Source: a virus
DNA: 44,254 nt
Reading direction: 5' to 3' (one strand)
UHGV virus genome: UHGV-1376702
Position 1 is the first letter of the stretch. Every line of letters starts with the position of its first letter. Position numbers and translations under genes: made by a program. This document shows, piece by piece, positions 1,547 to 26,677 of this stretch. The notes under the pieces were generated by a model. That model was not told where the DNA came from. It saw nothing but the letters and a program-made list of their open reading frames with translations, and did no database searches.

Positions 1547-3402
1547 TGGTATCGGTGAAGACTGCGCGAAGACTGCGCATGCTCAACCAGAAACTTACTG
1601 GTTATAGTGCGAATCCGCGCAGTATTCCCAAAGAGGAGCGCGAGGATATCGCGATGATGATGGCCGCGGCGCTAAGCGACTTCCGGGAATTCGCGTACAT
1701 CGGTATGCGGTTCCTGGGCTTTACGCTCACGGACATGCAGGCCGACATTGCAGAGTACATGCAGAAGGGCCCTAGGAAGCGAATGGTGGCCGCGCAGCGT
1801 GGTGAGGCTAAGTCTACACTAGCTGCGCTGTACGCCGTCTGGAGGCTCATACAGGACCAATCCTGCCGTATCCTGATTGTGTCTGGTGCAGAGAAGCAGG
1901 CGTCCGATGTAGCGAACTTAATCATTCGTATGCTGGAAACCTGGCCGCTGCTGTGCTACTTGAAGGCTGACTCTACTCGTGGGGACCGTACTTCATTCGA
2001 AGGTTATGATGTTCACTGCGACCTGAAACCTCTAGATAAGTCCGCCAGCGTAGCCTGTGTAGGTATCACTGCATCCCTGCAGGGGAAGCGTGCGGACCTG
2101 CTGATTCCGGATGATATCGAGACCACCAAGAATGGTTTAACGCAAACCCAGCGTGAGCAGCTGCTGATGATTTCTAAAGACTTCGCGGCTATCTGTACGC
2201 ACGGGGATACGCTGTACCTGGGTACACCACAGACCAAGGACAGTATCTATAAAACCCTGCCGGGACGTGGCTTCGAGGTCCGCGTGTGGCCCGGGCGCAT
2301 TCCGTCTGTTGAAATGGAAGAGCGATATGGAAGTACACTTGCTCCTTATATCCTGGAGCTTATTGAGCGCGGCTATAAACGCACCGGCTTCGGAGTCGAT
2401 GGGACGCTAGGCGAGAGCACGGACCCCGGGCGCTATGACGAGGATGCACTGATTGAGAAGGAGCTGGACTTTGGTCCGGAAGGCTTCCAGCTGCAGTACA
2501 TGCTCGACACCACCCTGTCCGACCAAATGCGTACGCGTATCAAGCTTTCGGATATGCTGGTTTACTCTGGCAGCCAGGAGTCCTCACCGGAGACGTTCTC
2601 CTACATCGCGGACCGCCGGTACCTGTACCAGCATGAGCATGAGGGGATTATGGGTCAGCAGATGTACTTCCCGGCATTCTACGGGGACATGCACCTGCCG
2701 TACCAGCATAAGGTACTGGTGGTGGACCCGGCTGGTTGTGGTGGGGACGAAGTGTCCTACGCTGCTGGAGGTGCTGCGAACTCGTACATTCACCTATTCT
2801 CCGTAGGCGGATTCCAAGGAGGTATCAGCGAAGAGAACATTGATAAACTGATTGACCTGTGTGTAGAGTTGGACATCCCGGATATGGTGGTGGAGAGCAA
2901 TATGGGGCACGGTACCGTGTCTATGCTTATCCTGAACCGATTACGTGAGCGGCGTCTCGCCGGTATCGGTGTAAGGGACCTGAATAACTCCACGCAGAAA
3001 GAGCGTCGTATCATCGACACAATCAGCCCAGTTACTCGTCGCCATCGCCTGATAGTGCATGAGCGTGCTATTCACGACGATATCAGTACCTGTATGGCAT
3101 ATTCCCGCGATAGGCGTTGGCTGTACTCTGCGTTCGCGCAGTTGTCCGGTATCACGTACGACCGCGGTAGCCTTGCGAAGGATGACCGGGCAGACGCAAT
3201 CGCCATGATGGTGGCTACGCTGAATGGGCATCTGGTGGAAGATGAGAAAGTGGTGGCTGAGCGTGAGTCTGAGAAGATGGCTCGGGCCTTCATTGAGAAC
3301 CCGCTGGATTGGGCACAGAGCAAAGTGTCTAAGGGCCTTCGGGGTGTAGCTGCTCGGCTGCATAACCGAGGCAGAGGTAAACAACATAGAGGAAGAAGAT
3401 AA
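1546..3402 (+). CDS. terminase large subunit
   Basis: 618 aa; N-terminal ATPase-like region (RMVAAQRGEAKST) and C-terminal nuclease-like region (VVDPAGCGGDEVSYAAGG); size and synteny match T7 gp19-type TerL. Confidence 0.85.
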   Translation: MVSVKTARRLRMLNQKLTGYSANPRSIPKEEREDIAMMMAAALSDFREFAYIGMRFLGFTLTDMQADIAEYMQKGPRKRMVAAQRGEAKSTLAALYAVWRLIQDQSCRILIVSGAEKQASDVANLIIRMLETWPLLCYLKADSTRGDRTSFEGYDVHCDLKPLDKSASVACVGITASLQGKRADLLIPDDIETTKNGLTQTQREQLLMISKDFAAICTHGDTLYLGTPQTKDSIYKTLPGRGFEVRVWPGRIPSVEMEERYGSTLAPYILELIERGYKRTGFGVDGTLGESTDPGRYDEDALIEKELDFGPEGFQLQYMLDTTLSDQMRTRIKLSDMLVYSGSQESSPETFSYIADRRYLYQHEHEGIMGQQMYFPAFYGDMHLPYQHKVLVVDPAGCGGDEVSYAAGGAANSYIHLFSVGGFQGGISEENIDKLIDLCVELDIPDMVVESNMGHGTVSMLILNRLRERRLAGIGVRDLNNSTQKERRIIDTISPVTRRHRLIVHERAIHDDISTCMAYSRDRRWLYSAFAQLSGITYDRGSLAKDDRADAIAMMVATLNGHLVEDEKVVAERESEKMARAFIENPLDWAQSKVSKGLRGVAARLHNRGRGKQHRGRR

Positions 3403-3776
3403 TGGCATCAATCATCGCAGCTAAAACTGCGGACGTACAGTACGCCATTGTAGGCACGTGCCAGAACCTGGAGAAGCAGGCGTCGCCGGACTACAACGTA
3501 GGCTTCGTAGGTACGACTGCCTTGACTAAGCTGAACGCGTTCTTCACGTACATGCAGTCCCAGGGCTATACGGCTACTCGTGCCGGTACAGCCTTCAAGG
3601 ATGACGGTACGCTGCAGGCGCGCCTGTTCAGCATGCTGTCACAGCTCTCTAAGACTGGCTACGTCGCCCTTACGGGTACAGGTATGCCGCTCGGTGAGGG
3701 CTCCGGTACAGCGTTTGATGATTCGTTCACTGCACTGCAGAGTGCGTTCGTAGCCGCCACTGACGCGGCAGAATAA
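3402..3776 (+). CDS. hypothetical protein
   Basis: 124-aa ORF, start overlaps terminase stop (ATAATGG); protein-like composition; no recognisable motif. Confidence 0.45.
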   Translation: MASIIAAKTADVQYAIVGTCQNLEKQASPDYNVGFVGTTALTKLNAFFTYMQSQGYTATRAGTAFKDDGTLQARLFSMLSQLSKTGYVALTGTGMPLGEGSGTAFDDSFTALQSAFVAATDAAE

Positions 3777-3787
3777 GGAGAGTACAC

Positions 3788-3970
3788 ATGGCAATTGCAA
3801 AAGCAACCCCAGCGCAACAGCAGGAGCTGCTGCGTCAGCTGAACATTCTCGGTAAGGACCTGTATGCTATCCTTACGCAGCCGCAGAACGTGGCCCAGAC
3901 TGGTGCTGCCTTCGATACCAAGATTGCTGCGCTTGAAGCCGCGGTGGCCGCAGTGAAGGCTGCTAGCTAA
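3788..3970 (+). CDS. hypothetical protein
   Basis: 60-aa ORF with RBS GGAGAG upstream; Ala/Gln-rich, helix-like; no transmembrane segment. Confidence 0.35.
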   Translation: MAIAKATPAQQQELLRQLNILGKDLYAILTQPQNVAQTGAAFDTKIAALEAAVAAVKAAS

Positions 3971-4374
3971 TGCGTAAACTGGTCGCTGGGTTGCTGCTCG
4001 CGGTTACTCTGACTGGTTGCTCGGCGACCTCTGCACTCACCGGATTAGTTGGTTCTAAGCCGGATGTATCTGCTCAGGTTGGTGCCGAGAACACCAAACA
4101 AACCGTTGGCTTGAATAACAAGGTGGACTCCAGCACCACCAACAAAACTGATGTACAGGATTCTAACGTAGGCACTTTGGACACGTCCAGTAAGAAGCAG
4201 GTGCAAACTATTAGCACCGGGACAATCCAGGCAGAACGCCTGCAGGTGGTTAACAATGATAGTTACAGTCTTATCCTCGCCGGATTAGCTGGGGCCAGTA
4301 TTCCTCTGGTCTTCCTAGTGGTCATTCTGGTGATTCGTAAGCTGTTCAGGAAGAAGGGGCAGCAGGATGATTAA
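3970..4374 (+). CDS. unimolecular spanin (u-spanin) candidate
   Basis: 134 aa; N-terminal lipoprotein signal with lipobox LTGC; Ser/Thr/Gln-rich middle; C-terminal TMD (LILAGLAGASIPLVFLVVILVI) then RKLFRKK. This is the architecture of T1 gp11-type u-spanins; no Rz/Rz1 pair is visible. Confidence 0.6.
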   Translation: MRKLVAGLLLAVTLTGCSATSALTGLVGSKPDVSAQVGAENTKQTVGLNNKVDSSTTNKTDVQDSNVGTLDTSSKKQVQTISTGTIQAERLQVVNNDSYSLILAGLAGASIPLVFLVVILVIRKLFRKKGQQDD

Positions 4375-4618
4375 GGTGGGAGACATGGTTGGAGCAGACC
4401 TCGCTACCCGGGCAGGTGCAGCAGTTACCGGCGCTACGGTATCAGGAGGTTGGTTGGCAGAGTTAATGAGCTGGAACTGGAGCACTATCAGCTTCATCAC
4501 TGCGACTGTGTGCGCAGTGCTAACCCTGGCGTGGAATGCGTATTACAAACGACGTACATTCAAGCTCCTAGAGGAGCAGGCACGTAAGGGGACTATTAAA
4601 TATGAGTTTAAGGACTAA
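4367..4618 (+). CDS. pinholin / holin candidate
   Basis: 83 aa (alternative start ATG 4385 with RBS AAGGTGGGAG); weakly hydrophobic Gly/Ala-rich segment (AGAAVTGATVSGGWLA) followed by a strongly hydrophobic TMD (WSTISFITATVCAVLTLAW) and a basic C-terminus; immediately 5' of a SAR endolysin. Confidence 0.5.
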   Translation: MIKVGDMVGADLATRAGAAVTGATVSGGWLAELMSWNWSTISFITATVCAVLTLAWNAYYKRRTFKLLEEQARKGTIKYEFKD

Positions 4619-5210
4619 GGTTATTGCGGCCCTCACGGGGGCCACTATGCTTGGCGGTGCCATTACCGGGGTGGTTCAGCACAACGAGGGGTTGAGCCTT
4701 ACCGCCTATAAGGATAGTGCCGGTGTCCCTACAATCTGCTACGGAGAGACAAAGGGCGTCAAGATGGGTCAGAGAGCCACGCTGAGCGATTGTCAGAAGC
4801 AACTGATAGAATCAGCAGGGGCACATGCAAAGGCTCTTGACGGGCTTCCTGTGCAGCTCTCTGACGTAGCTCTGGTTGGGTCTGTAGACTTCATTTATAA
4901 CGTAGGCGTAGCTGGCTTCAACGGCAGTGCTGTGAAGCGGCATCTCAAAAGCCTGAATTACGCAGCAGCTGGAAAGGCTGTACTGGACTGGCGCTATATT
5001 AGCAAGTACCAGCAGAAATCCCCGGGCATCGGTTGGGTGTACAAGGGCAGCAACCGCTGGACCTTCGACTGCTCTCAGTATATTAACGGGCAGCGCAATA
5101 AAGTGTGCTGGGGCCTATGGGAGCGCAGACAGTGGCAGAGCAAGGCCATTGGGAATCAGTATAAGAATGTAAATGCTGCGGTGGCAGCTCTTACTAAGAC
5201 CGGAGGATAA
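4602..5210 (+). CDS. SAR endolysin (T4-lysozyme-like muramidase, GH24-type)
   Basis: 202 aa; N-terminal signal-arrest-release-like weakly hydrophobic stretch (VIAALTGATMLGGAITGVV); catalytic motif E-x8-D-x5-T (NEGLSLTAYKDSAGVPT) typical of T4L/lambda R-type lysozymes. Confidence 0.8.
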   Translation: MSLRTKVIAALTGATMLGGAITGVVQHNEGLSLTAYKDSAGVPTICYGETKGVKMGQRATLSDCQKQLIESAGAHAKALDGLPVQLSDVALVGSVDFIYNVGVAGFNGSAVKRHLKSLNYAAAGKAVLDWRYISKYQQKSPGIGWVYKGSNRWTFDCSQYINGQRNKVCWGLWERRQWQSKAIGNQYKNVNAAVAALTKTGG

Positions 5211-7166
5211 ATGGCGTTAATTAGATTAGTAGCTCCAGAGCGGGTATTCTCCGACTTGGCGAGCATGGTAGCATATCCAAACTTTCAGGTACAGGACAAG
5301 ATTATCCTGCTGGGCAGCGCCGGTGGGGACTTCACCTTTACTACTGCTGCGTCGGTAGTGGATAACGGAACTGTGTTTGCTGTACCCGGTGGGTATCTGC
5401 TTCGTAAATTCGCGGGCCCGGCATACAGCTCCTGGTTCAGCAATTGGGCGGGCATAGTCACGTTCATGAGTGCACCTAATAGGCACCTGGTTGTGGACAC
5501 AGTCTTGCAGGCCACGAGTGTGCTCAACATCAAAAGCAACTCTACGCTAGAGTTTACTGACACCGGAAGAATCCTGCCGGATGCTGCGGTTGCACGTCAG
5601 GTGCTTAACATTATCGGCTCGGCACCATCGGCGTTCGTGCCGTTAGCAGCGGATGCCGCAGCGGGCAGCAAAGTCATTACGGTGGCTGCCGGGGCTTTGT
5701 CTGCGGTAAAAGGTACGTACTTGTATCTTCGCTCTAACAAGCTGTGCGACGGTGGGCCTAACACGTACGGTGTAAAGATTTCCCAGATTAGGAAAGTGGT
5801 GGGAGTCAGCACCTCCGGTGGCGTCACCAGTATTCGGCTGGATAAAGCGCTGCACTATAACTACTACCTGTCTGATGCCGCGGAAGTAGGCGTCCCTACA
5901 ATGGTAGAGAACGTAACCCTAGTATCTCCGTACATCAACGAGTTCGGCTACGACGACTTGAACCGGTTCTTTACTATCGGTATCTCTGCCAACTTTGCCG
6001 CGGACTTGCACATCCAGGACGGGGTTATTATTGGCAACAAACGCCCCGGGGCTTCTGATATAGAAGGGCGTAGTGCTATCAAGTTCAATAACTGCGTAGA
6101 TAGTACCGTTAAGGGTACGTACTTCTACAACATCGGATGGTATGGGGTAGAGGTGCTCGGCTGCTCAGAGGACACGGAAGTACACGATATCCACGCCATG
6201 GACGTACGCCACGCAATCTCTCTGAACTGGCAGAGCACTGCAGACGGGGACAAGTGGGGAGAGCCTATCGAGTTCTTAGGCGTTAACTGCGAAGCCTACA
6301 ACACAACCCAAGCTGGGTTTGATACTCATGACATTGGTAAGCGTGTGAAGTTCGTTCGATGCGTTTCGTACGACAGTGCTGACGATGGGTTCCAAGCGCG
6401 CACTAACGGGGTAGAGTACTTGAACTGTCGAGTTTACCGTGCAGCTATGGACGGGTTCGCCTCCAACACCGGTGTAGCCTTCCCTATCTATAGGGAGTGC
6501 CTAGCTTATGACAACGTACGCTCTGGCTTTAACTGCTCGTACGGCGGTGGCTACGTTTATGACTGCGAGGCTCACGGTAGCCAGAATGGTGTGCGAATCA
6601 ACGGGGGCCGTGTTAAGGGTGGTCGGTACACCCGCAACTCCAGCTCTCACATCTTCGTTACTAAGGACGTAGCTGAGACAGCGCAGACACCCCTGGAGAT
6701 TGATGGCGTGAGCATGCGCTACGACGGTACCGGGAGAGCTGTGTACTTCCACGGGACTATGGGCATTGACCCTACCCTGGTATCTATGTCCAATAACGAC
6801 ATGACCGGTCACGGCTTGTTCTGGGCATTGCTGAGCGGCTACACCGTTCAACCTACGCCTCCGCGCATGTCCATGAACTTACTGGATGACACAGGTATCC
6901 GTGGAGTGGCAACTCTGGTGGCTGGTGAGGCTACAGTCAACGCCCGTGTACGCGGAAACTTTGGCAGCGTAGCTAACTCCTTCAAGTGGGTGTCTGAGGT
7001 TAAGTTGACGCGGTTGACCTTTCCCTCTAGTGCTGGGGCCTTGACGGTTACTGGCGTAGCTCAGAACCAGGATGTGCCTACACCTAATCCGGACCTAAAC
7101 AGCTTCGTGATTAGGAGCAGTAACGCAGCGGACGTATCCCAGGTAGCCTGGGAGGTGTATCTCTAA
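5211..7166 (+). CDS. tailspike / probable polysaccharide depolymerase (beta-helix)
   Basis: 651 aa; start directly follows the endolysin stop; Gly/Asn/Val/Thr-rich sequence with repetitive short beta-strand pattern (e.g. NCVDSTVKGTYFYNIGWYGVEV) typical of right-handed beta-helix tailspikes; last structural-type gene before the non-coding terminus. Confidence 0.6.
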   Translation: MALIRLVAPERVFSDLASMVAYPNFQVQDKIILLGSAGGDFTFTTAASVVDNGTVFAVPGGYLLRKFAGPAYSSWFSNWAGIVTFMSAPNRHLVVDTVLQATSVLNIKSNSTLEFTDTGRILPDAAVARQVLNIIGSAPSAFVPLAADAAAGSKVITVAAGALSAVKGTYLYLRSNKLCDGGPNTYGVKISQIRKVVGVSTSGGVTSIRLDKALHYNYYLSDAAEVGVPTMVENVTLVSPYINEFGYDDLNRFFTIGISANFAADLHIQDGVIIGNKRPGASDIEGRSAIKFNNCVDSTVKGTYFYNIGWYGVEVLGCSEDTEVHDIHAMDVRHAISLNWQSTADGDKWGEPIEFLGVNCEAYNTTQAGFDTHDIGKRVKFVRCVSYDSADDGFQARTNGVEYLNCRVYRAAMDGFASNTGVAFPIYRECLAYDNVRSGFNCSYGGGYVYDCEAHGSQNGVRINGGRVKGGRYTRNSSSHIFVTKDVAETAQTPLEIDGVSMRYDGTGRAVYFHGTMGIDPTLVSMSNNDMTGHGLFWALLSGYTVQPTPPRMSMNLLDDTGIRGVATLVAGEATVNARVRGNFGSVANSFKWVSEVKLTRLTFPSSAGALTVTGVAQNQDVPTPNPDLNSFVIRSSNAADVSQVAWEVYL

Positions 7167-7261
7167 GTAGATCCCTGGGGTATCTCTACGGTATCCCGGG
7201 GCACTGCTGGGGTGCACGTCTATACCTGGACATGAAATTTATTAGACTTTAAAATGAGGAT

Positions 7262-7723
7262 ATGTCTATGAACATCAAATATGACACAACATCCCCTAGC
7301 TGCTTGGTGTGGCTCAAGGGTAGGCGCGCCGGTGCTCCAGCGGGTACCCGCAACACTCGTGGCTACTGGGTGGTACAGGTATCTGGTAGAAAGATACAGG
7401 CACACCGCCTCATCTGGGAACTACACAACGGGCCTATTCCAGACGGATATGTGGTGGACCACATCAACCAAAACCCCAGTGACAACAGATTAGAGAACCT
7501 GCGCTTAGCTACGGTTAGCGAAAACAACTGTAACGCACGCAGGTCTAAGCGGGAACATCCTAGGGGTGTATACTACACTGGCACCTGCTGGCGCGGGGAG
7601 TTCTGGAAGGACGGTAAGCGTTACATGAAGAAGCACAGCTCCTACGAAGTTATCTGCAAGTGGGTACTAGAGAAACGTCAAGAGCAACACAAGGCCTTCA
7701 CCCCGGGGCATGTGTATACCTGA
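7262..7723 (+). CDS. HNH homing endonuclease
   Basis: 153 aa; HRLIWELHNGPIPDGYVVDHINQNPSDNRLENLRLAT matches the HNH_3-type motif of free-standing phage homing endonucleases; RBS AATGAGGA. Confidence 0.8.
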   Translation: MSMNIKYDTTSPSCLVWLKGRRAGAPAGTRNTRGYWVVQVSGRKIQAHRLIWELHNGPIPDGYVVDHINQNPSDNRLENLRLATVSENNCNARRSKREHPRGVYYTGTCWRGEFWKDGKRYMKKHSSYEVICKWVLEKRQEQHKAFTPGHVYT

Positions 7724-7810
7724 AACCAAAAATTATTATACTCACCCTTGGGCCTCCCTCACCCTCAACGCGCCCAATTGCCCCCATAGGGGGTGCCTAG
7801 CGTCAATTTA

Positions 7811-7821
7811 GGGGGGGGGGG
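7811..7821. repeat. G11 homopolymer tract
   Basis: Eleven consecutive G in the non-coding region. Confidence 0.9.
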
Positions 7822-7928
7822 CACTGGTGGGGCCTGCTAGTGCGCACTAGAGCGCCTCAGCGGGCCTGTGCTGCGCTCTAAGGCTATTGCCAGTGCTACC
7901 CTATGGCTATCACTGTGCGTTCACTAGG

Positions 7929-7972
7929 GCGCTTCCTGTGCGCTTCCTGTGCGCTTCCTGTGCGCTTCCTGT
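7929..7972. repeat. tandem direct repeat, 4 x 11 bp (GCGCTTCCTGT)
   Basis: Four perfect head-to-tail copies read directly from the sequence. Confidence 0.9.
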
Positions 7973-8240
7973 GGGCCATAGGGGCGTGCTCTGCCTTGCT
8001 TATTTTGTGCGCCTCAGTGGGCCTGCCTAGTGCCTGTCTAGTGCCTGCGCAGTGGGGCCATAGGGTATGCCTAGTGCTATCCCTAGTGTGCACTAGGCTA
8101 TCCACTGGCTATCCTTAGTGCTTTACATTGTGCTAATTATGTGCTACGCTGCGCGCTCCCCACTAGGGCGCACATCCACCACACCGCACTATCCAGCGCT
8201 ATCCCTTTGCTCTTACTTTCATTCGAAAGCTATTATGAAA

Positions 8241-17796: not shown

Positions 17797-18242
17797 CAGG
17801 TTGTATTGACCACGGACAGAAGGGAAGCACTTGCCGAGGAAAGGGCGCTGGGTATGGCCGCTCCAGATTTGACGGGAAGACAACTGGCAGCCACCGCAAA
17901 GCATACTGTGTAGCTCACAACTTGAAGCTGAGCGATATCGCGGGACTTGTAGTCCGGCATTCGTGCGACAATCCTCGGTGCATAAATCCGGAGCACCTGC
18001 TACTAGGGACTTCTAGCGATAATATGCAGGACCGAAATAAAGGTGCGCGTAATTTGCTGGGCAGCCGCAACCCTGCTGCCAGACTTACCCCAGAAGACGT
18101 GCACAGCATACGAGAAGCATACGCTGGCGGTGAGACCCAGGTATCTATAGCGAGACGCTTCGGGACAAGTCAAGGATACATATCTAATATCATAAAGGGG
18201 AGGGTATGGAATGAGCAGAAGCATCCTGATAACGGATTATGA
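17793..18242 (+). CDS. HNH homing endonuclease
   Basis: Motifs CIDHG, HR, VRHSCDNPRCINPEHLLLGT...N; track start 17787 is TTG, ATG at 17793 is more likely. Confidence 0.8.
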   Translation: MTGCIDHGQKGSTCRGKGAGYGRSRFDGKTTGSHRKAYCVAHNLKLSDIAGLVVRHSCDNPRCINPEHLLLGTSSDNMQDRNKGARNLLGSRNPAARLTPEDVHSIREAYAGGETQVSIARRFGTSQGYISNIIKGRVWNEQKHPDNGL

Positions 18243-20610
18243 GACGCAAAACCACCCATATTACGGTAGTGTTGCTTCCCCGTACTGTCCGGATAATTAC
18301 ATCGTAGAATCAGCGTGGCGTATTGACCGCACGCACGATGACGGTACGGTAGAAGTAGGCCCCGTAGAGAGTGTACGGTATAACAGTCGCGCGCACTTTG
18401 AAGCGGCACCTGTATCAGAATGGCTCCCAATACCAGCTGACTGTTGGCTGATTGTGGCTCACAACGCCGCATATGAGATTAGCTGGTTCCTAACCTTTGC
18501 GCGCGCCGAGTTTGAGGCCTTCCTAAAGCGGGGAGGTCGCGTATTCTGTACGATGCATTCTGAGTACATCGCCTCGGACTTTCAGAGCATGTATCCGTCG
18601 CTGGACGAGACGGCTCCTAAGTACGGTGGTACGCACAAAGTAGACGGGGTTAAGCTTCTGTGGGAGCAGGGTGTGCTAACTTCCCAGATTGACCCGATGC
18701 TGCTGCATGACTACCTGGTTAACGGGGACATCCCGAACACGGCCCTGTGCTTCTACGGCCAGTGCGCTACGTTCGCCCAGCGCAATCAGATGCAGTACGT
18801 GTGGGAGCGTATGGATGCCTTGCTGGCTTGGGCGTACTGCGAATGGTTCGGCCTGTTCGTTAATATGCCAATTGCACGCAAGAACCAGGAGGAGCAGGAG
18901 CAGCGCATCCGTGAGATTAAGCAGGAACTGCAGCAGTACATCCCGAAGGACTTACCAGAGACGCTAGATTTCAACTTCGGGTCGGACTTCCATATGTCAG
19001 CACTGGTGTACGGCGGGCCTATCAAGTACCGCAAGAAGGTGCCATATGACCCGCCGCAGTACGTCAAGGCCGACTTCTATAAGTACGAGGACGGAGAGGG
19101 TGCGCACACCTATATACCTGTACACGACACGCACATGCAAGAACTTCAAACGGAAGGCGGATGGTGGCGTGTAGTGACATATCGTGCGGGTAAGAACAAG
19201 GGGCTACCCAAAGTATTCCGCCTAGACACCGAGGAGGAGAAGCTAAAGTGGGAAGATGACCTTTACTTCTGCCCGGGCCTAGTGAACATACAGGAGCTGC
19301 CGGAAGTTATCCGGGAGAAGTATGCAGAGCGTGGAGAGTTCCGACAGGCGCGCACCATGCAGGACGGTACGCCAGTATACAGCACCAGCACTGACGCAAT
19401 GGAGGCGCTAGCCCGCCAAGGGTTCGAGTTCTGTAAGTTGGTGAATGAGCTGGCGGCGCTGGAGAAGGACACTGGAACTTACTACTTGCGTGAAGTTCTG
19501 GACGCAGAGGGTAAAGTCAAAGAGCGGAAGGGTATGTTACAGTACGTAATCCCTGAGCGTCCTGATGGTTCTGGCATCATACACCACCGACTGAATACAT
19601 GCGCCACCGTAACCGGGCGCCTGAGTAGCTCTAACCCGAACCTGCAGAACCTACCCCGACCGGATGAAGACGGGGATGGGGTAGCTAAATCCAAGGTGAA
19701 GCAGGTATTCACCAGCCGATTCGGGGATAACGGACGCATCACTGAGGTTGACTACTCGGCGCTGGAAGTGGTTATGTCCTGTGTGCATACGGGGGACACC
19801 AAACTACTGGGGCTGCTGCAGGGCGGCACGGATATGCACTGTTACCGCCTAGCTTTCCGCGAGGAACTGCCGTATGAAGAAGTGTATGAGCGCTGCCACA
19901 ACAAGAAGCACGAGCTGCATCCGCTTTGGAAGGCAATGCGTACAGGTATTAAGGCTCCTAGCTTCGCAGCCCAGTATGGCGCTACGGCTAAGGGGATTGC
20001 GTTTGCTACTGGATGTACGGTGGAATTCGCACAGGCTTTCTTGGACAACGAGGCTGCGCTGTTCCCGCAAACAATTGGCTTCCGCGCTGTTATCAAGGAA
20101 GAAGTAGAGCGCACCGGGGCAGCCGGGCGCATGTACCGCGAGCAGGCTGACGATGGCAGCTACCGAGTCTACCGCATCGGGACGTGGACTAGCCCAGCAG
20201 GTGCCCGCTATAGCTTCCGCCAGAAGGAGCAGTGGAAAGAGGTTGTGCCTGGGCAGCGTAAGCAGAAGGTAATGGACTACAAGGAAACAGAGATGGCTAA
20301 CTACTGGTGCCAGGGGGAAGCATTCTTCCTGATGGCGGTAGCCGCCGGTATGGTTCTGCGTGCACTCCTGGCCCGTGACTGGTTCGACAATCAGGTGTGC
20401 CTGATTACGAACGTGCACGATGCGTTGTATCTGGACAGCGCCAACCCGGAGGTTGGACGTGAGGCGAGCCTGCTGGTTAAGCAGTGCATGGAGGATGCAC
20501 CTAAGCGTATTCACCAGCTCTGGCCTAACTACGGCATCATTGGTGAGGTCCCGTTCCCAGCAGAGGCTGAGATGGGTACGAGTATGTACAGTAAGGAGAA
20601 GGTAGAATGA
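18211..20610 (+). CDS. DNA polymerase, family A (T7 gp5-like) with 3'-5' exonuclease domain
   Basis: 799 aa; exo motif ILITDYETQN; pol motif A (EVDYSALEVV), motif B (R..IKAPSFAAQYG), motif C (VHDALY); TGRLSSSNPNLQNLP. Confidence 0.9.
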   Translation: MSRSILITDYETQNHPYYGSVASPYCPDNYIVESAWRIDRTHDDGTVEVGPVESVRYNSRAHFEAAPVSEWLPIPADCWLIVAHNAAYEISWFLTFARAEFEAFLKRGGRVFCTMHSEYIASDFQSMYPSLDETAPKYGGTHKVDGVKLLWEQGVLTSQIDPMLLHDYLVNGDIPNTALCFYGQCATFAQRNQMQYVWERMDALLAWAYCEWFGLFVNMPIARKNQEEQEQRIREIKQELQQYIPKDLPETLDFNFGSDFHMSALVYGGPIKYRKKVPYDPPQYVKADFYKYEDGEGAHTYIPVHDTHMQELQTEGGWWRVVTYRAGKNKGLPKVFRLDTEEEKLKWEDDLYFCPGLVNIQELPEVIREKYAERGEFRQARTMQDGTPVYSTSTDAMEALARQGFEFCKLVNELAALEKDTGTYYLREVLDAEGKVKERKGMLQYVIPERPDGSGIIHHRLNTCATVTGRLSSSNPNLQNLPRPDEDGDGVAKSKVKQVFTSRFGDNGRITEVDYSALEVVMSCVHTGDTKLLGLLQGGTDMHCYRLAFREELPYEEVYERCHNKKHELHPLWKAMRTGIKAPSFAAQYGATAKGIAFATGCTVEFAQAFLDNEAALFPQTIGFRAVIKEEVERTGAAGRMYREQADDGSYRVYRIGTWTSPAGARYSFRQKEQWKEVVPGQRKQKVMDYKETEMANYWCQGEAFFLMAVAAGMVLRALLARDWFDNQVCLITNVHDALYLDSANPEVGREASLLVKQCMEDAPKRIHQLWPNYGIIGEVPFPAEAEMGTSMYSKEKVE

Positions 20611-20989: not shown

Positions 20990-21424
20990 ATGTCGATGTG
21001 TATTGACCACGGGTATAACAAATGCCTTAACAAGAACGGATACCGCCGGGCATGGTATAAGCCGACCAGGCGATTGGAGCTGCTGCATCGGGTGGTGTAT
21101 GCTGAGCATAACGGGCTGGATATAAGGGCGCTGGCTGGCCTGTCTGTTAGACATACCTGCGATAACCCCAGGTGCATTAACCCTAAGCACTTAGTATTGG
21201 GAACGCATATGGATAATATGCGGGACCGTGCAGAGCGCGGAAGGAACCCAGATGTGCGTGGGGATAGGAACCCAAAAGCGCAGTTAACTTGGGATGCTGT
21301 GCAGGATATCAGGGATAACTATATCCCATACAAGAAAGGTATGCGGCAACACTTTGCTAATAAGTACGGTGTAGGTGTACATGTAATTAGTGACGTAATA
21401 AGTAACAGGAGCTGGAATGCCTAA
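20990..21424 (+). CDS. HNH homing endonuclease
   Basis: 144 aa; RBS AAGAGGA; motifs CIDHG, HR, VRHTCDNPRCINPKHLVLGT...N. Confidence 0.8.
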   Translation: MSMCIDHGYNKCLNKNGYRRAWYKPTRRLELLHRVVYAEHNGLDIRALAGLSVRHTCDNPRCINPKHLVLGTHMDNMRDRAERGRNPDVRGDRNPKAQLTWDAVQDIRDNYIPYKKGMRQHFANKYGVGVHVISDVISNRSWNA

Positions 21425-22397
21425 GTTAAACACAATAAAGCTATTCACCAAAGAGCAACACATAGATATCTTGAGCAAGCACAGCTCTAACGTGGATGCT
21501 GCTGCCGCCTATAATAAGCTGGCGGGACTGGACGAGCCAGTGGTGTATCGACAGATGGTGAAGTACTGGCGCAGCATATTCCTAGACCACGCTGGGAGCA
21601 AGGGTAAGGCAATATCACACATGAAGGAGGCACTAAAGCTCATACAGCCCAGTCCCACTGATGACATCGGCAAAACCTTCGTGCCGGAAGTGTGCCACCG
21701 TATTCTCGTAGTTGGGGATTTGCATGCCCCCTATACGCACGTAGATGCTATGGCCTTCTTAGAATCTGTGCGAGACGCCTACTGTCCGGACATGGTTGTA
21801 CAGGTAGGCGACGAGACGGACGGCCACGCTATATCATTCCACGAAAGTAACCCGAACCTGGATAGCGCCGGGGTGGAGCTGGAGAAAGCTAAGCTCGTAC
21901 TGGAGGAGCTACATGAACTGTTCCCGAACCTATTGGTTTGCGATTCCAATCACGGCAGTCTGGTTTACCGCAGGGCGAAAGCTCACGGGCTACCAGTGCA
22001 ATTCATCAAGAAGTACCGAGATATACTTTTCCCTGAACATGGTGCCCCGGCGTGGTCTTGGGCTGACGCGTGGGTACTCAATACCCCACTTGGCCCGGTT
22101 AGATTCCAGCATCAAGTGTCGGGTGACTTCATGCTCAACGCTAGCCACGAAAGAACCAGCCTTGTCCTTGGTCACGAACATGGTCGCTTTGAGGTGCAAT
22201 ATGCAGCTAGCTCAACAGCTTTGTACTTTGGTGCGTATGCTGGGTGTCTGATTGACCGTAAGAGCATGGCCTTTGCTTACGGCAGACTCACCCGCAAGAA
22301 ACCAATCCTGGGTGTGATGGTAATCACCGAGGGTTGCCCGCAGTTAATTCCGATGCTGCTTGACGACGATGGTCGTTGGGTTGGTCGTACTAAATAA
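21417..22397 (+). CDS. calcineurin-like metallophosphoesterase
   Basis: 326 aa; GDLH ... GDETD ... CDSNHG motifs in canonical order (GDxH, GDxxD, GNH). Confidence 0.6.
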   Translation: MPKLNTIKLFTKEQHIDILSKHSSNVDAAAAYNKLAGLDEPVVYRQMVKYWRSIFLDHAGSKGKAISHMKEALKLIQPSPTDDIGKTFVPEVCHRILVVGDLHAPYTHVDAMAFLESVRDAYCPDMVVQVGDETDGHAISFHESNPNLDSAGVELEKAKLVLEELHELFPNLLVCDSNHGSLVYRRAKAHGLPVQFIKKYRDILFPEHGAPAWSWADAWVLNTPLGPVRFQHQVSGDFMLNASHERTSLVLGHEHGRFEVQYAASSTALYFGAYAGCLIDRKSMAFAYGRLTRKKPILGVMVITEGCPQLIPMLLDDDGRWVGRTK

Positions 22398-22407
22398 CAC
22401 AGAGGTG

Positions 22408-22578
22408 ATGATGAAAATGGGAATCTGTTCTGTACTGGGCCTTATCTTTGTAACCTTGAAACTGACTGGCGTTATCGCCTGGTCCTGGTTGTGGGTGCTG
22501 CTCCCGTTCTGGGGGCCTATGGCACTCGGCGTAATCCTAGTGTTCTTGGCGGTGGCCCTCAAAGCTGCCTCCCGCTAA
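22408..22578 (+). CDS. small membrane protein (two predicted TMDs)
   Basis: Start refined to ATG 22408/22411 (RBS AGAGG); about 56 aa; hydrophobic segments ICSVLGLIFVTL and MALGVILVFLAVAL. Confidence 0.4.
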   Translation: MMKMGICSVLGLIFVTLKLTGVIAWSWLWVLLPFWGPMALGVILVFLAVALKAASR

Positions 22579-22629
22579 GCCCTGCATCTGCACGTAAATA
22601 TCATTCAAACTAAACGAGGAAGTAATTAT

Positions 22630-23418
22630 ATGACGATGAATGCACTGGACACCCTGAACTCCCTGGTAGCGGCTGCTATTGAAACGCAGGATGTTGATAT
22701 GACTGAAACCGCACAGGGCGGTGCGTATGAGGACGCGCTGCTGCCGAAGGGTGAATACTACGGCTACTTCACCGAGTACGTAGAAATCGGTAAGCGCCTG
22801 CCGACTAAGGGTGGCAAGCCGACCGGTAAGCCCGCAGTAGCTAACGTACGCATCGGCATTGTAGTGTTCGGTCCTAACGGCGAAGTGAAGCGTATCCGCC
22901 CGTTCCCGATGGCTATCAGTAACTTTGAGCGCGCAGGCTTCAAGAAGTTCTTCGACAAGCTCAACTACGACAATAGCATTAAGCATGCAGCACAGCGTCT
23001 GGGCCAGGCCTTCACCTTCCCGATTGATGAGCACACCAGCGCCGCGGGCAAGAAGTCCAACATCGTGGACCTGTCCGGTATCCGCCCGATTCCGAAATTC
23101 GACCCGAACACTGGCGAGCCTATCAAGATGCCTGCCATGGATGCCTCTGAGATTAAGCTGTTCCTGTGGAACAACCCAACCAAAGAGACCTGGGATAGCC
23201 TGCACATCGAAGGCACCTTCGACGATGGTAAGAGCAAGAACTGGATTCAGGAGGATATGTACAAGGCTGTAGACTTCCCTGGCAGTGCTCTGGATATTCT
23301 GCTGAACGCTGGCTCGGTTCCTAGTCCGGCAGCTATGCAGGCACCCGCAGCCCCGGCTGCACCAGTGGCCCCTGCAGCCCCTGTGGCGCCAGCAGCACCC
23401 GCCGCACCTCAAGCCTAA
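22630..23418 (+). CDS. hypothetical protein with Pro/Ala-repeat C-terminal tail
   Basis: 262 aa; RBS GAGGAAG; C-terminus APAAPAAPVAPAAPVAPAAPAAPQA. Confidence 0.5.
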   Translation: MTMNALDTLNSLVAAAIETQDVDMTETAQGGAYEDALLPKGEYYGYFTEYVEIGKRLPTKGGKPTGKPAVANVRIGIVVFGPNGEVKRIRPFPMAISNFERAGFKKFFDKLNYDNSIKHAAQRLGQAFTFPIDEHTSAAGKKSNIVDLSGIRPIPKFDPNTGEPIKMPAMDASEIKLFLWNNPTKETWDSLHIEGTFDDGKSKNWIQEDMYKAVDFPGSALDILLNAGSVPSPAAMQAPAAPAAPVAPAAPVAPAAPAAPQA

Positions 23419-23471
23419 TCAACCCTAACCTAAACTAATACGGCCCCTCCTAGGGGCCTTAGAGGAAGCCT

Positions 23472-23726
23472 ATGAGCATCATCAAGATTCTCATCAAACT
23501 CCTGAGCGCAGCCTACACAGCAGAAGCTAAACGCGCCGATGCCAAAGTGCAGTTTAACGAGCAGTTGTCAGTTAAATTCGCAGACGACGCAGTGCGTCTG
23601 GCCGCTCAATCCGAGGCGCGCGTAGAGGCATCCAAGCATAGCAAAGAGTTAGCCGAGGCGTGCGCTTGCCATGCTGATAACCTGCGCGCTAAGCGTGGTG
23701 AAGTAGCTAACTTCCTGGAGGTATAA
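23472..23726 (+). CDS. hypothetical protein (hydrophobic N-terminus)
   Basis: 84-aa ORF with RBS GAGGAAG. Confidence 0.4.
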   Translation: MSIIKILIKLLSAAYTAEAKRADAKVQFNEQLSVKFADDAVRLAAQSEARVEASKHSKELAEACACHADNLRAKRGEVANFLEV

Positions 23727-24005
23727 ATGCGCATAATCACATGGGCCAAAGAACAGTACGCTGTGTTTCTGCTTCTGCGTGCACAGCGTTTGCAGAAGCG
23801 AGCAAACGACTGGCACTGGGCAGCTAATTCTCACGCACACAGGGCAAGCCTTCTGGGTGCCGAGATTAGCGCACACCGCTATCACTTGACTCGCCAGTGC
23901 GCCAAGTCCCGACGCCGTGCATACGCCCTGGGTGCAGAGGCTACGGCCACTGAGACCAAAGCCCACAATTTCATTTCAAAACACAAATTGAAAGGATTTG
24001 ACTAA
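23727..24005 (+). CDS. hypothetical basic protein
   Basis: 92-aa ORF directly abutting the previous stop; Arg/His/Lys-rich. Confidence 0.4.
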   Translation: MRIITWAKEQYAVFLLLRAQRLQKRANDWHWAANSHAHRASLLGAEISAHRYHLTRQCAKSRRRAYALGAEATATETKAHNFISKHKLKGFD

Positions 24006-24543: not shown

Positions 24544-24706
24544 ATGCGTAACTTCTTTGCAAAATCATTTTACTTCCTGTTAGTAGCCCCGCTAGTGCCT
24601 GTAGCTATCCTGTGCTGGGCATTTGAGAAGGTAGAAAACAGTCAGGCGCTGACCGCCTGGGAATCCTGGGCGCGTAAGTTGACCAAGAAGGTTACGGGGG
24701 TCTGAT
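24544..24706 (+). CDS. small membrane protein (about 53 aa)
   Basis: Not in the ORF track; hydrophobic segment FYFLLVAPLVPVAILCWAF; stop overlaps the exonuclease start. Confidence 0.3.
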
Positions 24707-25673
24707 GATTATCAACGGGGTTGACTTGTCCCAGCTCGGGGAGCAGTTAGCTCCGCAGAACTCTGGGAAGATTCTGCTGTACGACGCGGATTTCACAGTT
24801 TATAAATCTGCTGCTACAGTGAAACGTTTGGATACCGCGATACGCCGCTTCTATCAGCTGGTGCTTGAGGACATGTTCCTGGTCGGCTGCTCAGAAGCAG
24901 TGGCGTATCTGACGCCTACGGGGTGTGCTAAGTGCCTGCGCTGGCACCTGCCTACGGCTAAGCCGTACCAAGGGAACCGCAATAAGCGTCAGGAGCTGCC
25001 ACTCAAGGCACCGTTGAAGCGGCACCTGATTGAGAACCCGGACCAGTATTCTGAGCATGGCATACAAGTGGTAAGCAGTGACTACTTTGAGGCCGACGAC
25101 CTATTTGTAATGGATTCGTACAGCTTCGGGGGCCGGGGAATCCTGATGTCACAGGACAAGGATTCTTGGCTCAGCCCTATGGCTCGGTTCGATATCCCTA
25201 CCGGAACCGTGTGGCCTGCCTTGGATAACCCATTCGGCTGGATTAAGTGGGATGATACCCAGGCTATGCCGGTACGAGCGCATGGCACTAAGTTCTTCTG
25301 GTGGCAAATGCTAGCAGGAGATGACGCAGATAACGTCAAAGGCATCACATTGCTTGATGGAAAGCTCTGTGGGAAGCGAACGGCCTTTGATGCTATCAAC
25401 CCTATTACCTCAGAGCAGGACGCCGCAGAATTCGTTGTAGCGGCCTATGCTCGAAACAACCAAGACGTACTCGCAGAGGCAGAATGCCTGTGGCTGAGGC
25501 GCTCCCAATCAGATTCAGCGTACCTGTATCTGATGTCACTGTTGACTACTCCCAGTCTGCGTGACTGGGTGCATTCTCTGCACGAGTACCATAAACAGCA
25601 CATACAGTGGATACAGGAGCACCCAGACAATGGCGAAGATGTCTGCGAAGGAGATGAGCCTGCGGGCGATTGA
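24705..25673 (+). CDS. 5'-3' exonuclease (T7 gp6 / FEN-like)
   Basis: 322 aa; acidic clusters in gp6-like order (LLYDADF, EADDLFVMDSY, SQDKD, GDDADNVKGIT); located after DNA polymerase. Confidence 0.65.
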   Translation: MIINGVDLSQLGEQLAPQNSGKILLYDADFTVYKSAATVKRLDTAIRRFYQLVLEDMFLVGCSEAVAYLTPTGCAKCLRWHLPTAKPYQGNRNKRQELPLKAPLKRHLIENPDQYSEHGIQVVSSDYFEADDLFVMDSYSFGGRGILMSQDKDSWLSPMARFDIPTGTVWPALDNPFGWIKWDDTQAMPVRAHGTKFFWWQMLAGDDADNVKGITLLDGKLCGKRTAFDAINPITSEQDAAEFVVAAYARNNQDVLAEAECLWLRRSQSDSAYLYLMSLLTTPSLRDWVHSLHEYHKQHIQWIQEHPDNGEDVCEGDEPAGD

Positions 25674-25830
25674 GTTATACTACGAGGGGAAACACGATGA
25701 ACTTGAAACTATTCTGGATGCGCTGCGTGAACGAGCACCCAAAACACATCGAAGAACGGTTGAGCATTTGGATTCTCTCATTCACGACAATGCTATGCTG
25801 GATGTAGTAGGGGAGATTCAGGTATGGTAA
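25630..25830 (+). CDS. hypothetical small protein
   Basis: In-frame ATG about 25630 with RBS AGGAGC; overlaps the exonuclease 3' end out of frame; stop overlaps the next HNH start. Confidence 0.3.
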   Translation: MAKMSAKEMSLRAIELYYEGKHDELETILDALRERAPKTHRRTVEHLDSLIHDNAMLDVVGEIQVW

Positions 25831-26273
25831 TGAACACACCTTGTATAGACCACGGTTGCAAAGGCATGGGCCTAGGCTACGCCACTGCTTGGTTTAGGGT
25901 GAACGGGGTTCGGAAGAGCACCACCAGGCACCGGATTGTATTCTATGCGGCACACGGATACTTCCCGGAGGTCGTAGAGCATGTATGCAACAACCCGCGC
26001 TGTATAAACGTGGAACATCTACGTGCAGGTACACATAAAAGTAACGCAGAATACAAGCACGCATGTGGGCGCGGTAATATAGAGGCGGCCACTAGGAAGG
26101 GCACGGATAATGGACGCGCTAAACTGGACGACTCCTTAGTGCGGTATCTCCGACAGATGTACGTGCCTAACGACCGAGAGTGGGGTGCGTCCGCTATAGC
26201 TAGGAGGTTAAATATGGGCGTTTCTAGTACACACAGAATGCTAACGGGGGCAGCATGGCGGCACGTCGTATAA
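25824..26273 (+). CDS. HNH homing endonuclease
   Basis: 149 aa; motifs CIDHG, HR, VCNNPRCINVEHLRAGT; same paralogue family. Confidence 0.75.
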   Translation: MVMNTPCIDHGCKGMGLGYATAWFRVNGVRKSTTRHRIVFYAAHGYFPEVVEHVCNNPRCINVEHLRAGTHKSNAEYKHACGRGNIEAATRKGTDNGRAKLDDSLVRYLRQMYVPNDREWGASAIARRLNMGVSSTHRMLTGAAWRHVV

Positions 26274-26677
26274 CTAGGGGTCAGGTCAGGGCCGTAACAT
26301 TGAAGCTGCTAAAAGAGCAATGTGGGCTGTGTCTAATATGTGGCAAGCCTATAGAGATTACTGCCAAGAGCACCTCTGGGGATGGGCCCGCGCTAGACCA
26401 CTCGCACCGCACCGGACACATCCGAGGGGTGTTGCACCGCTCATGTAACGGGGGTATTGGCCGAGCAGAGTCTGTAATAGGCCGGTGGGTTACAGGGTCT
26501 ATGCAAGATGAGGCGGCCATTGTCGAGGATATGCAGCGTATGGTAGACTATCTACGTAGGCCCGAAACTGAGTTAATTTACTACACACACCGCAGTCCAG
26601 AAGAATTGGCACAGGCACAGAAGCTCAAGGCCCGCAAGGCCCGGGCACGACGCAAAGCACGGGAGACTATTAAATGA
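26255..26677 (+). CDS. endonuclease VII-like (T4 gp49-type) junction-resolving nuclease
   Basis: 140 aa; CGLCLIC ... LDHSHRTGHIRGVLHRSCNGGIG matches the endo VII zinc/HNH-like core; basic C-terminal tail. Confidence 0.65.
   Translation: MAARRITRGQVRAVTLKLLKEQCGLCLICGKPIEITAKSTSGDGPALDHSHRTGHIRGVLHRSCNGGIGRAESVIGRWVTGSMQDEAAIVEDMQRMVDYLRRPETELIYYTHRSPEELAQAQKLKARKARARRKARETIK

Follow-up and report, generated by a model that had tools for sequence, protein, structure and literature searches.

The window analysed here, UHGV virus genome UHGV-1376702 (44,254 nucleotides), is a complete-length 44.3 kb genome of a Klebsiella podophage of the genus Drulisvirus (KP34-like, Autographiviridae), and the subject of this report is a metallophosphoesterase (MPE) gene in its replication module. 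An earlier note, made from the letters of this DNA alone, had proposed a calcineurin-like metallophosphoesterase here, and the open reading frame (ORF) listing returned a real plus-strand frame at exactly the positions proposed (Table 1). The ATG start is supported by the conservation of the N-terminus (MPK/MAK...LFTKEQH) among homologs. As the note had read, this start overlaps the preceding HNH gene, by 8 nucleotides within ATGCCTAA, and an identical 8-nucleotide overlap is found in Klebsiella phage KpV71. The 3-kb region around the gene shows 99.8% identity to Klebsiella phages RCIP0106 and RCIP0044 and ~89% to KpV71, and the protein is 100% identical to that of RCIP0044.

Family, active site and architecture

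The family PHROG 221, labelled 'metallo-phosphoesterase', matches residues 1–325 of the protein (E 7e-107). Searched exhaustively, a set of 1.84 billion cluster representatives yielded 1,544 representative homologs (50% identity clusters), and 643 deposited phage genomes carry a PHROG 221-type protein, hence the MPE identity is far beyond chance. The Pfam Metallophos model (PF00149) was borderline for the window protein, with 21.5 bits against a cutoff of 21.5 and residues 95–152 only, and was matched by 39 of the 61 homologs used for the conservation alignment (identity down to ~30%), with a best E of 4.6e-10; Metallophos_2 was touched by six of them. No match for the protein was found in NCBIfam or PADLOC, and a PDB sequence search returned none with either the protein itself or the 61-sequence profile.

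All five motifs of the MPE superfamily (DxH, GDxxD, (G)NH(D/E), H and GHxH) are present, with a serine in place of glycine in motif III. The motif set in the note (GDxH, GDxxD and GNH) was thus borne out for GDLH and GDETD, and the third motif reads SNH instead. Across the alignment P105, H108, D132, E154, N178, H179, H232, H253 and H255 do not vary, and conservation is at least 90% for D101, H103, D135 and the motif III serine. Conserved residues specific to the family include P105, H108, D110, S140, H142, E154, R185, W213, W215, Y288 and W321. Judged from sequence and model, the protein is an active-looking binuclear metallophosphoesterase with a complete set of metal ligands. LAGLIDADG-type inteins of ~295–330 amino acids interrupt some homologs at three sites, all within catalytic motifs: motif I (DLH|C...GN|C, homolog P0178), motif II (GDE|C...GN|C, homologs P0124, P0126, P0174 and P0252) and motif V (GHLH|C...GN|S, homolog P0220). 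Inteins have been noted to favour replication and repair proteins, and their targeting of these motifs argues for the importance of the motifs to the phage.

The note had advised structure prediction, and the AlphaFold2 model is a confident one, with a mean predicted local distance difference test (pLDDT) of 91.5 and a predicted template-modelling score of 0.81; it adopts the beta-alpha-beta-alpha-beta sandwich fold of the superfamily. The fold comparison with Mre11, phosphatase and phosphodiesterase structures, also advised, gave scores of 12.6 for SbcD, 12.3 for Mre11, 10.6 for Rv0805, ~10.4 for PPP phosphatases and 10.3 for the Pnkp phosphatase domain, and YfcE (14.4), MJ0936 (13.9), the Pol delta B-subunit (13.0) and LpxH (12.7) all scored higher. 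The top neighbour was instead PolD DP1 (5IHE, 11% identity), to which the model is similar in fold across the phosphodiesterase domain. DP1, the small subunit of archaeal PolD, is an Mre11-like 3'-5' proofreading exonuclease, considered here together with the eukaryotic B-subunits of Pol alpha, delta and epsilon. It differs from the window protein in its OB-fold and polymerase-docking domains, which are not seen in the model (three helices, then the MPE core), and in its partner, a family-D polymerase where that of the window protein would be a family-A enzyme; a profile search against the PDB gave no match to DP1 at the sequence level. The YfcE/MJ0936 group (Metallophos_2) is likewise distinct, as hhalign to Escherichia coli YfcE gave <1% and members of the PHROG 221 family extend ~60 residues further at the C-terminus and conserve additional His, Trp and Tyr residues.

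The protein is built in two parts, a feature the note overlooked. The catalytic core of ~235 amino acids is preceded by a three-helix module (helices at residues 12–21, 25–36 and 45–57, pLDDT about 90–97) and a linker modelled with low to moderate confidence (pLDDT 59–85), whose peptide in the region of residues 74–91 is KLIQPSPTDDIG. The near-invariant motif in this linker, KLIQPSPTDDIGxTxVP, may be a docking motif. Stand-alone cores of ~235 amino acids make up 81 of 149 representatives and 63 have an N-terminal extension of at least 45 amino acids, the three-helix module being common to only 11 of these 63. Other homologs bear N-terminal DNA-binding domains (HTH_23, n = 6, HTH_psq, HTH_SB, HTH_3, HTH_28/29 and others) or HNH-associated repeats; these helix-turn-helix (HTH) fusions occupy the same position as the three-helix module and are independent of it. 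The module of the window protein looks HTH-like, on weak evidence. In Escherichia phage K1E it occurs as a separate small protein: for one K1E proteome BFVD lists the module (A0A2I4Q1Z7, 104 amino acids) and the MPE core (A0A2I4Q1Y4, 237 amino acids) as separate entries, unlike NC_007637, where gene 22 is a single 335-amino-acid protein. The discrepancy comes down to a gene split or, failing that, to the two records differing in sequencing or annotation.

Table 1. Positions of the metallophosphoesterase gene, its parts and selected neighbours in the window
Feature	Position	Strand	Basis or remark
Complete MPE gene, PHROG 221, 326 amino acids, ATG start	21417..22397	+	ORF listing, phrog_221
Shine-Dalgarno AGGAG, 5 nucleotides 5' of the MPE ATG	21407..21411	+	Read from sequence
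N-terminal three-helix module, residues 1–60, looks HTH-like	21417..21596	+	Lineage-specific
Linker motif KLIQPSPTDDIGxTxVP, residues 74–91	21636..21689	+	Near-invariant in Autographiviridae homologs
MPE catalytic core, residues 93–326	21693..22394	+	
Motif I GDLH, residues 100–103, metal ligands D101 and H103	21714..21725	+	Both at least 90% conserved
Motif II GDETD, residues 131–135, D132 invariant	21807..21821	+	Translation and homolog alignment
Motif III SNH, residues 177–179, N178 and H179 invariant	21945..21953	+	Translation and homolog alignment
Motif IV histidine H232 (in FQHQ)	22110..22112	+	Invariant in 61 homologs
Motif V GHEHG, residues 252–256, H253 and H255 invariant	22170..22184	+	Translation and homolog alignment
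HNH homing-endonuclease gene 5' of MPE (context, not part of the enzyme)	20990..21424	+	Pfam HNH_3 2e-09, phrog_6254 2e-25
Family-A DNA polymerase	18211..20610		
5'-3' exonuclease	24705..25673		
Endonuclease VII	26255..26677		

Kinship with Bxb1 gp47, D29 gp54 and A10ZJ24 Gp48

Following a literature lead on a mycobacteriophage phosphoesterase, we compared the window protein directly with Bxb1 gp47 and D29 gp54, a kinship the note had also missed. Both are contained in PHROG 221 (4.5e-116 and 2.6e-113, respectively), together with K1E gp22 and homologs from Nitrincola and Tenacibaculum phages and from metagenomes, and other phage MPEs fall into other PHROGs (phrog_547, 1745, 100 and 246, covering D29 gp66, T5 A1, an SbcD-like ORF in phrog_100 and lambda NinI in phrog_246). 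In hhalign the family profile aligned with gp54 at 97.7% probability over 210 columns (HMMER 42.6 bits), with gp47 at 96.7% over 202 columns (34.2 bits), and with a two-sequence profile at 97.9%, these full-core alignments spanning 202–215 columns. Eight controls scored in the same way (lambda NinI, E. coli SbcD, ApaH, YfcE, LpxH, CpdA, T5 A1 and D29 gp66) reached at most 61% probability, ~86 columns and 7.7 bits. As the profile alignments and the PHROG 221 assignment agree, the window protein belongs, by sequence, to the gp47/gp54 family, in which it is distant from these two at about 20% identity.

The relatives share a P-(Y/F) after motif I and a C-terminal VGxLxD...Y.K with the window family, gp47 has the same top structural neighbour (DP1, 5IHE), and both groups are encoded near a family-A DNA polymerase in a replication module. 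Window residues D101 and D132 correspond to D10 and D41 of gp47, motif V GHEHG to its GHTH (H175/H177), and the window SNH aligns with the GNH of gp47/gp54. The two mycobacteriophage proteins lack the N-terminal module, the linker and H108, and also H142 as far as the alignment shows. The phages themselves differ too: the window phage is a lytic podovirus, the mycobacteriophage group are temperate siphoviruses, and the hosts are different.

Gp47 was described as the directionality factor of the Bxb1 integrase, and its homologs also occur, always between polymerase and primase genes, in phages whose recombination does not depend on it; a replication role was suggested for them, and the L5 and D29 homologs lack directionality-factor function (Ghosh et al. 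2006, PMC1470463). As L5 and D29 are without it, this function does not define the PHROG 221 family. Furthermore, a tblastn search of the window with the Bxb1 integrase detected no integrase-like sequence (best E 0.56), hence the directionality role is irrelevant for the window protein. The Bxb1 RefSeq record (NC_002656, L083) names gp47 'metallo-phosphoesterase' and places 'recombination directionality factor' on gp46, gp70 and gp75, which looks like an annotation inconsistency with the literature.

A 2025 NAR paper reported DP1 (5IHE) and Mre11 as the top structural neighbours of gp47, found weak Mn/Mg-dependent exonuclease activity and proposed a nuclease with an editing or processing role tied to replication; gp47 is indispensable to the replication of phage DNA (PMC11795197, the last point citing Savinov et al. 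2012). Gp48 of phage A10ZJ24 was shown in EMBO Rep in 2025 to be a phosphodiesterase that degrades linear, plasmid and genomic double-stranded DNA in vitro, is toxic and lowers genomic DNA integrity in vivo; its D10G, D41V and H175D mutants are inactive and a gp48-deletion phage cannot replicate its DNA in Mycobacterium tuberculosis (PMC12287305). The three inactivating positions have their aligned counterparts in the window protein at D101, D132 and H253 and single these out as residues of note.

Genomic context and candidate functions

The gene lies in a replication module, as the note had stated: the family-A polymerase, the 5'-3' exonuclease and endonuclease VII are nearby, a primase and a helicase are encoded upstream, and a nucleotide kinase and an RNA polymerase are also among the surrounding genes, placing the MPE with the middle (DNA-metabolism) genes. 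Comparable settings recur across lineages, for which the search used a narrower alignment of stand-alone cores. In the Drulisvirus KpV71 and in K1E, Bxb1 and D29 the family member lies near a family-A polymerase within the replication module; in the Vectrevirus K1E an exonuclease and then endonuclease VII precede the MPE, and a nucleotide kinase and then a ligase follow it, Nitrincola phage 1M3-16 has primase/helicase, polymerase, exonuclease, MazG, MPE and ribonucleotide reductase (RNR), and in Tenacibaculum phage Larrie the MPE sits between RNR and a twinkle-like helicase. Independent metagenomic lineages pair it with PolA, DnaB, a primase-helicase-like nucleoside triphosphatase, RNR and a FEN-like exonuclease, with a family-A polymerase close by in L026, L033, L041 and L077. 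The link to the gp47 group suggests that phage replication modules recurrently pair a DP1-like phosphoesterase with a family-A replicase.

That the window protein acts as a DNA phosphodiesterase in phage replication or in the breakdown of host DNA is, in our estimate, slightly more likely than not. This reading draws on the intact active site, the kinship with gp47/gp54, the replication context, the HTH and HNH-repeat fusions of homologs and the inteins within catalytic motifs. The earlier note was right that the substrate is not evident from the sequence, and its three options (an Mre11/SbcD-type DNA nuclease, a protein phosphatase and a nucleotide phosphodiesterase) no longer stand as equals. 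Kinship with the DNA-directed gp47, gp54 and Gp48 group favours DNA as the substrate. The enzyme would hydrolyse phosphodiester bonds in DNA as an exo- or endonuclease of the DP1/Mre11 mechanistic type, with two divalent metals held by D101, H103, D132, N178, H232, H253 and H255 activating a water molecule and H179 stabilising the transition state. Next to the family-A polymerase it may process DNA ends and the intermediates of replication or recombination; alternatively, it may help the neighbouring exonuclease and endonuclease VII to break host DNA down to precursors. The N-terminal module and linker might anchor the core, either on DNA or on a partner in the replisome.

A purely editing exonuclease is doubtful, because the family-A polymerases that adjoin the MPE can have an exonuclease domain of their own. 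Such a domain was detected in the L026 polymerase. In the window polymerase the N-terminus (18211–19320, ~370 residues) contains, by eye, a DxE motif (ITDYET) and HNAAYE (HNxxYE); no Pfam exonuclease model or PDB sequence matched this region and single-sequence hhalign gave no confirmation, hence a 3'-5' exonuclease domain there is plausible but unconfirmed.

Several observations weigh against a DNA phosphodiesterase. MPE enzymes are promiscuous in vitro, and fold and motifs do not fix the substrate. The phage already has a 5'-3' exonuclease and endonuclease VII of its own, the HTH nature of its own N-terminal module is unproven, and gp47/gp54 are only ~20% identical to the window protein, with glutamine replacing the metal ligand H103. 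The reported activities of these relatives are weak or disputed: contamination could not be excluded in the gp47 exonuclease assay (PMC11795197), and gp47 itself was said to lack phosphoesterase activity (PMC12287305). Our literature search found no functional study of Autographiviridae members. The most abundant marine IMG/VR lineage also departs from the replication setting, as its stand-alone MPE lies between a ~1,070-amino-acid protein and a lysozyme-like ORF (L043, L044, L073, L032, L052 and about 20 similar loci, around 3260–8135). The large neighbour had no Pfam or PHROG match; the lysozyme/transglycosylase-like ORF has 148 amino acids, and the recurrent neighbours in this lineage had no Pfam match, PHROGs otherwise giving only unknowns.

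Among the alternatives, an end-healing enzyme is unlikely but carries the most weight. As a 3'-phosphatase or 2',3'-cyclic phosphodiesterase comparable to lambda phosphatase or to the phosphatase domain of bacterial Pnkp, it would act on the ends of broken DNA or RNA and, together with a kinase and a ligase, mend nuclease damage, such as that inflicted by host anticodon nucleases or restriction. Improbable, and more so than end healing, is an anti-defence phosphodiesterase that destroys alarmones or immune messengers (cyclic di- and trinucleotides, cCMP/cUMP, cyclic oligoadenylates or isomers of cyclic ADP-ribose). The HTH fusions of homologs, their load of inteins and the setting in replication modules each indicate DNA, on which the closest characterised relatives act, and hhalign gave 5–8% for CpdA, <1% for ApaH and 1.2% for D29 gp66, a cAMP-active MPE from a different PHROG that is unrelated to the window protein. 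No proximity in sequence or structure to CpdA/Icc, of the class III cyclic-nucleotide phosphodiesterases (CpdA/Rv0805), was found, PADLOC offered no match, the text of the AntiDefenseFinder paper mentions no metallophosphoesterase and a 2026 Klebsiella anti-defence paper makes no mention of this protein. Were it nevertheless true, an immune-signal hydrolase, present in many Autographiviridae middle-gene modules, would add a new class of enzyme to the counter-defences directed at signalling, and the DNA context and gp47 kinship would reflect ancestry and not function. T5 A1, a candidate host-DNA-degrading MPE, is likewise unrelated (hhalign 0.5–4%, different PHROG).

A canonical Mre11/SbcD-type nuclease, with which the phage would process its own double-strand breaks and hairpins, was one of the options in the note and now seems very improbable; an orthologue of this type is largely refuted. 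No SbcC/Rad50-like ATPase was found among the ORFs of the window replication region or in the KpV71 annotation, and hhalign to E. coli SbcD gave 6–15% over ~44 columns (HMMER 7.6 bits). Moreover, a PHROG 221 member coexists with a dedicated pair in L026 (2536–6713) and L033 (3752–6856), where an SbcD-like ORF (338 amino acids), an SbcC/Rad50-like ATPase (536–564 amino acids), an HNH-motif protein and the PHROG 221 MPE follow one another, with a DnaB-like helicase and a family-A polymerase downstream. The SbcD-like ORF there has the motifs DxH/GDLxD/GNHD/GHYH, belongs to phrog_100 and aligns with E. coli SbcD at 97% in hhalign, so these modules each encode an SbcD-like MPE nuclease and a second, different and putative one. 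Equally remote is a mainly non-catalytic adaptor, like gp47 for the Bxb1 integrase or the eukaryotic polymerase B-subunits, since the metal ligands are invariant across the family, the inteins target catalytic motifs, the window shows no detectable serine integrase and Gp48 motif mutants lose function. The lowest probability of all goes to a Ser/Thr/Tyr protein phosphatase that reverses host kinase-based responses. Its model, lambda NinI, is also a phage-encoded MPE of the same superfamily, its motifs I–III can be aligned with those of the window protein, and it gave the best hhalign score outside the family (35–61% probability). NinI differs, however, in its PHROG (246), its only partial alignment and its motif II and III signatures, and structural similarity to PPP enzymes is lower; neither the PPP signatures (GDxHG/GDxVDRG/GNHE) nor a full-length relationship was found in the window protein, which excludes PPP membership of the NinI type. 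Neither the role of a cyclic-nucleotide phosphodiesterase nor that of a protein phosphatase has support, and both are improbable.

The window MPE is an ordinary phage gene that changes no paradigm, its family having an existing PHROG and its 'metallo-phosphoesterase' label being in many deposited genomes already. The analysis adds the control-calibrated link to the gp47/gp48 group and its DNA-directed activities, rules out membership of the SbcD and PPP families, and describes the two-part architecture along with the patterns of inteins and HTH fusions. PHROG 221 is widespread, including in podophages of Klebsiella, E. coli, Pectobacterium and Aeromonas that are therapeutic candidates, and its members are usually labelled merely 'metallo-phosphoesterase' or 'hypothetical'. 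For the Autographiviridae, the link to the gp47/gp48 group gives a concrete candidate function, that of a DNA phosphodiesterase for replication or host-DNA breakdown.

Further features of the replication region

The HNH gene that overlaps the MPE start has a paralogue in the same replication module, the two homing-endonuclease genes (20990–21424 and 25824–26273) being 30% identical (E 4e-16). Downstream of the MPE, a phrog_862 protein (22630–23418, plus strand) carries a Pro/Ala-rich low-complexity tail, PAAPAAPVAPAAPVAPAAPAAP, and an opposite-strand ORF of 291 amino acids (22537–23412) is probably a composition artefact. Among the 2-kb bins only that at 22001–24000 has a negative GC skew (-0.014; the others range from +0.003 to +0.154). 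A hydrophobic small ORF (22360–22578, plus strand, phrog_1374) is listed with a TTG start lying inside the MPE gene, so that the two overlap by 38 nucleotides at the MPE 3' end. Its KpV71 counterpart is a shorter gene of 55 amino acids that starts past the MPE stop, hence the true start of the window ORF is probably an internal ATG.

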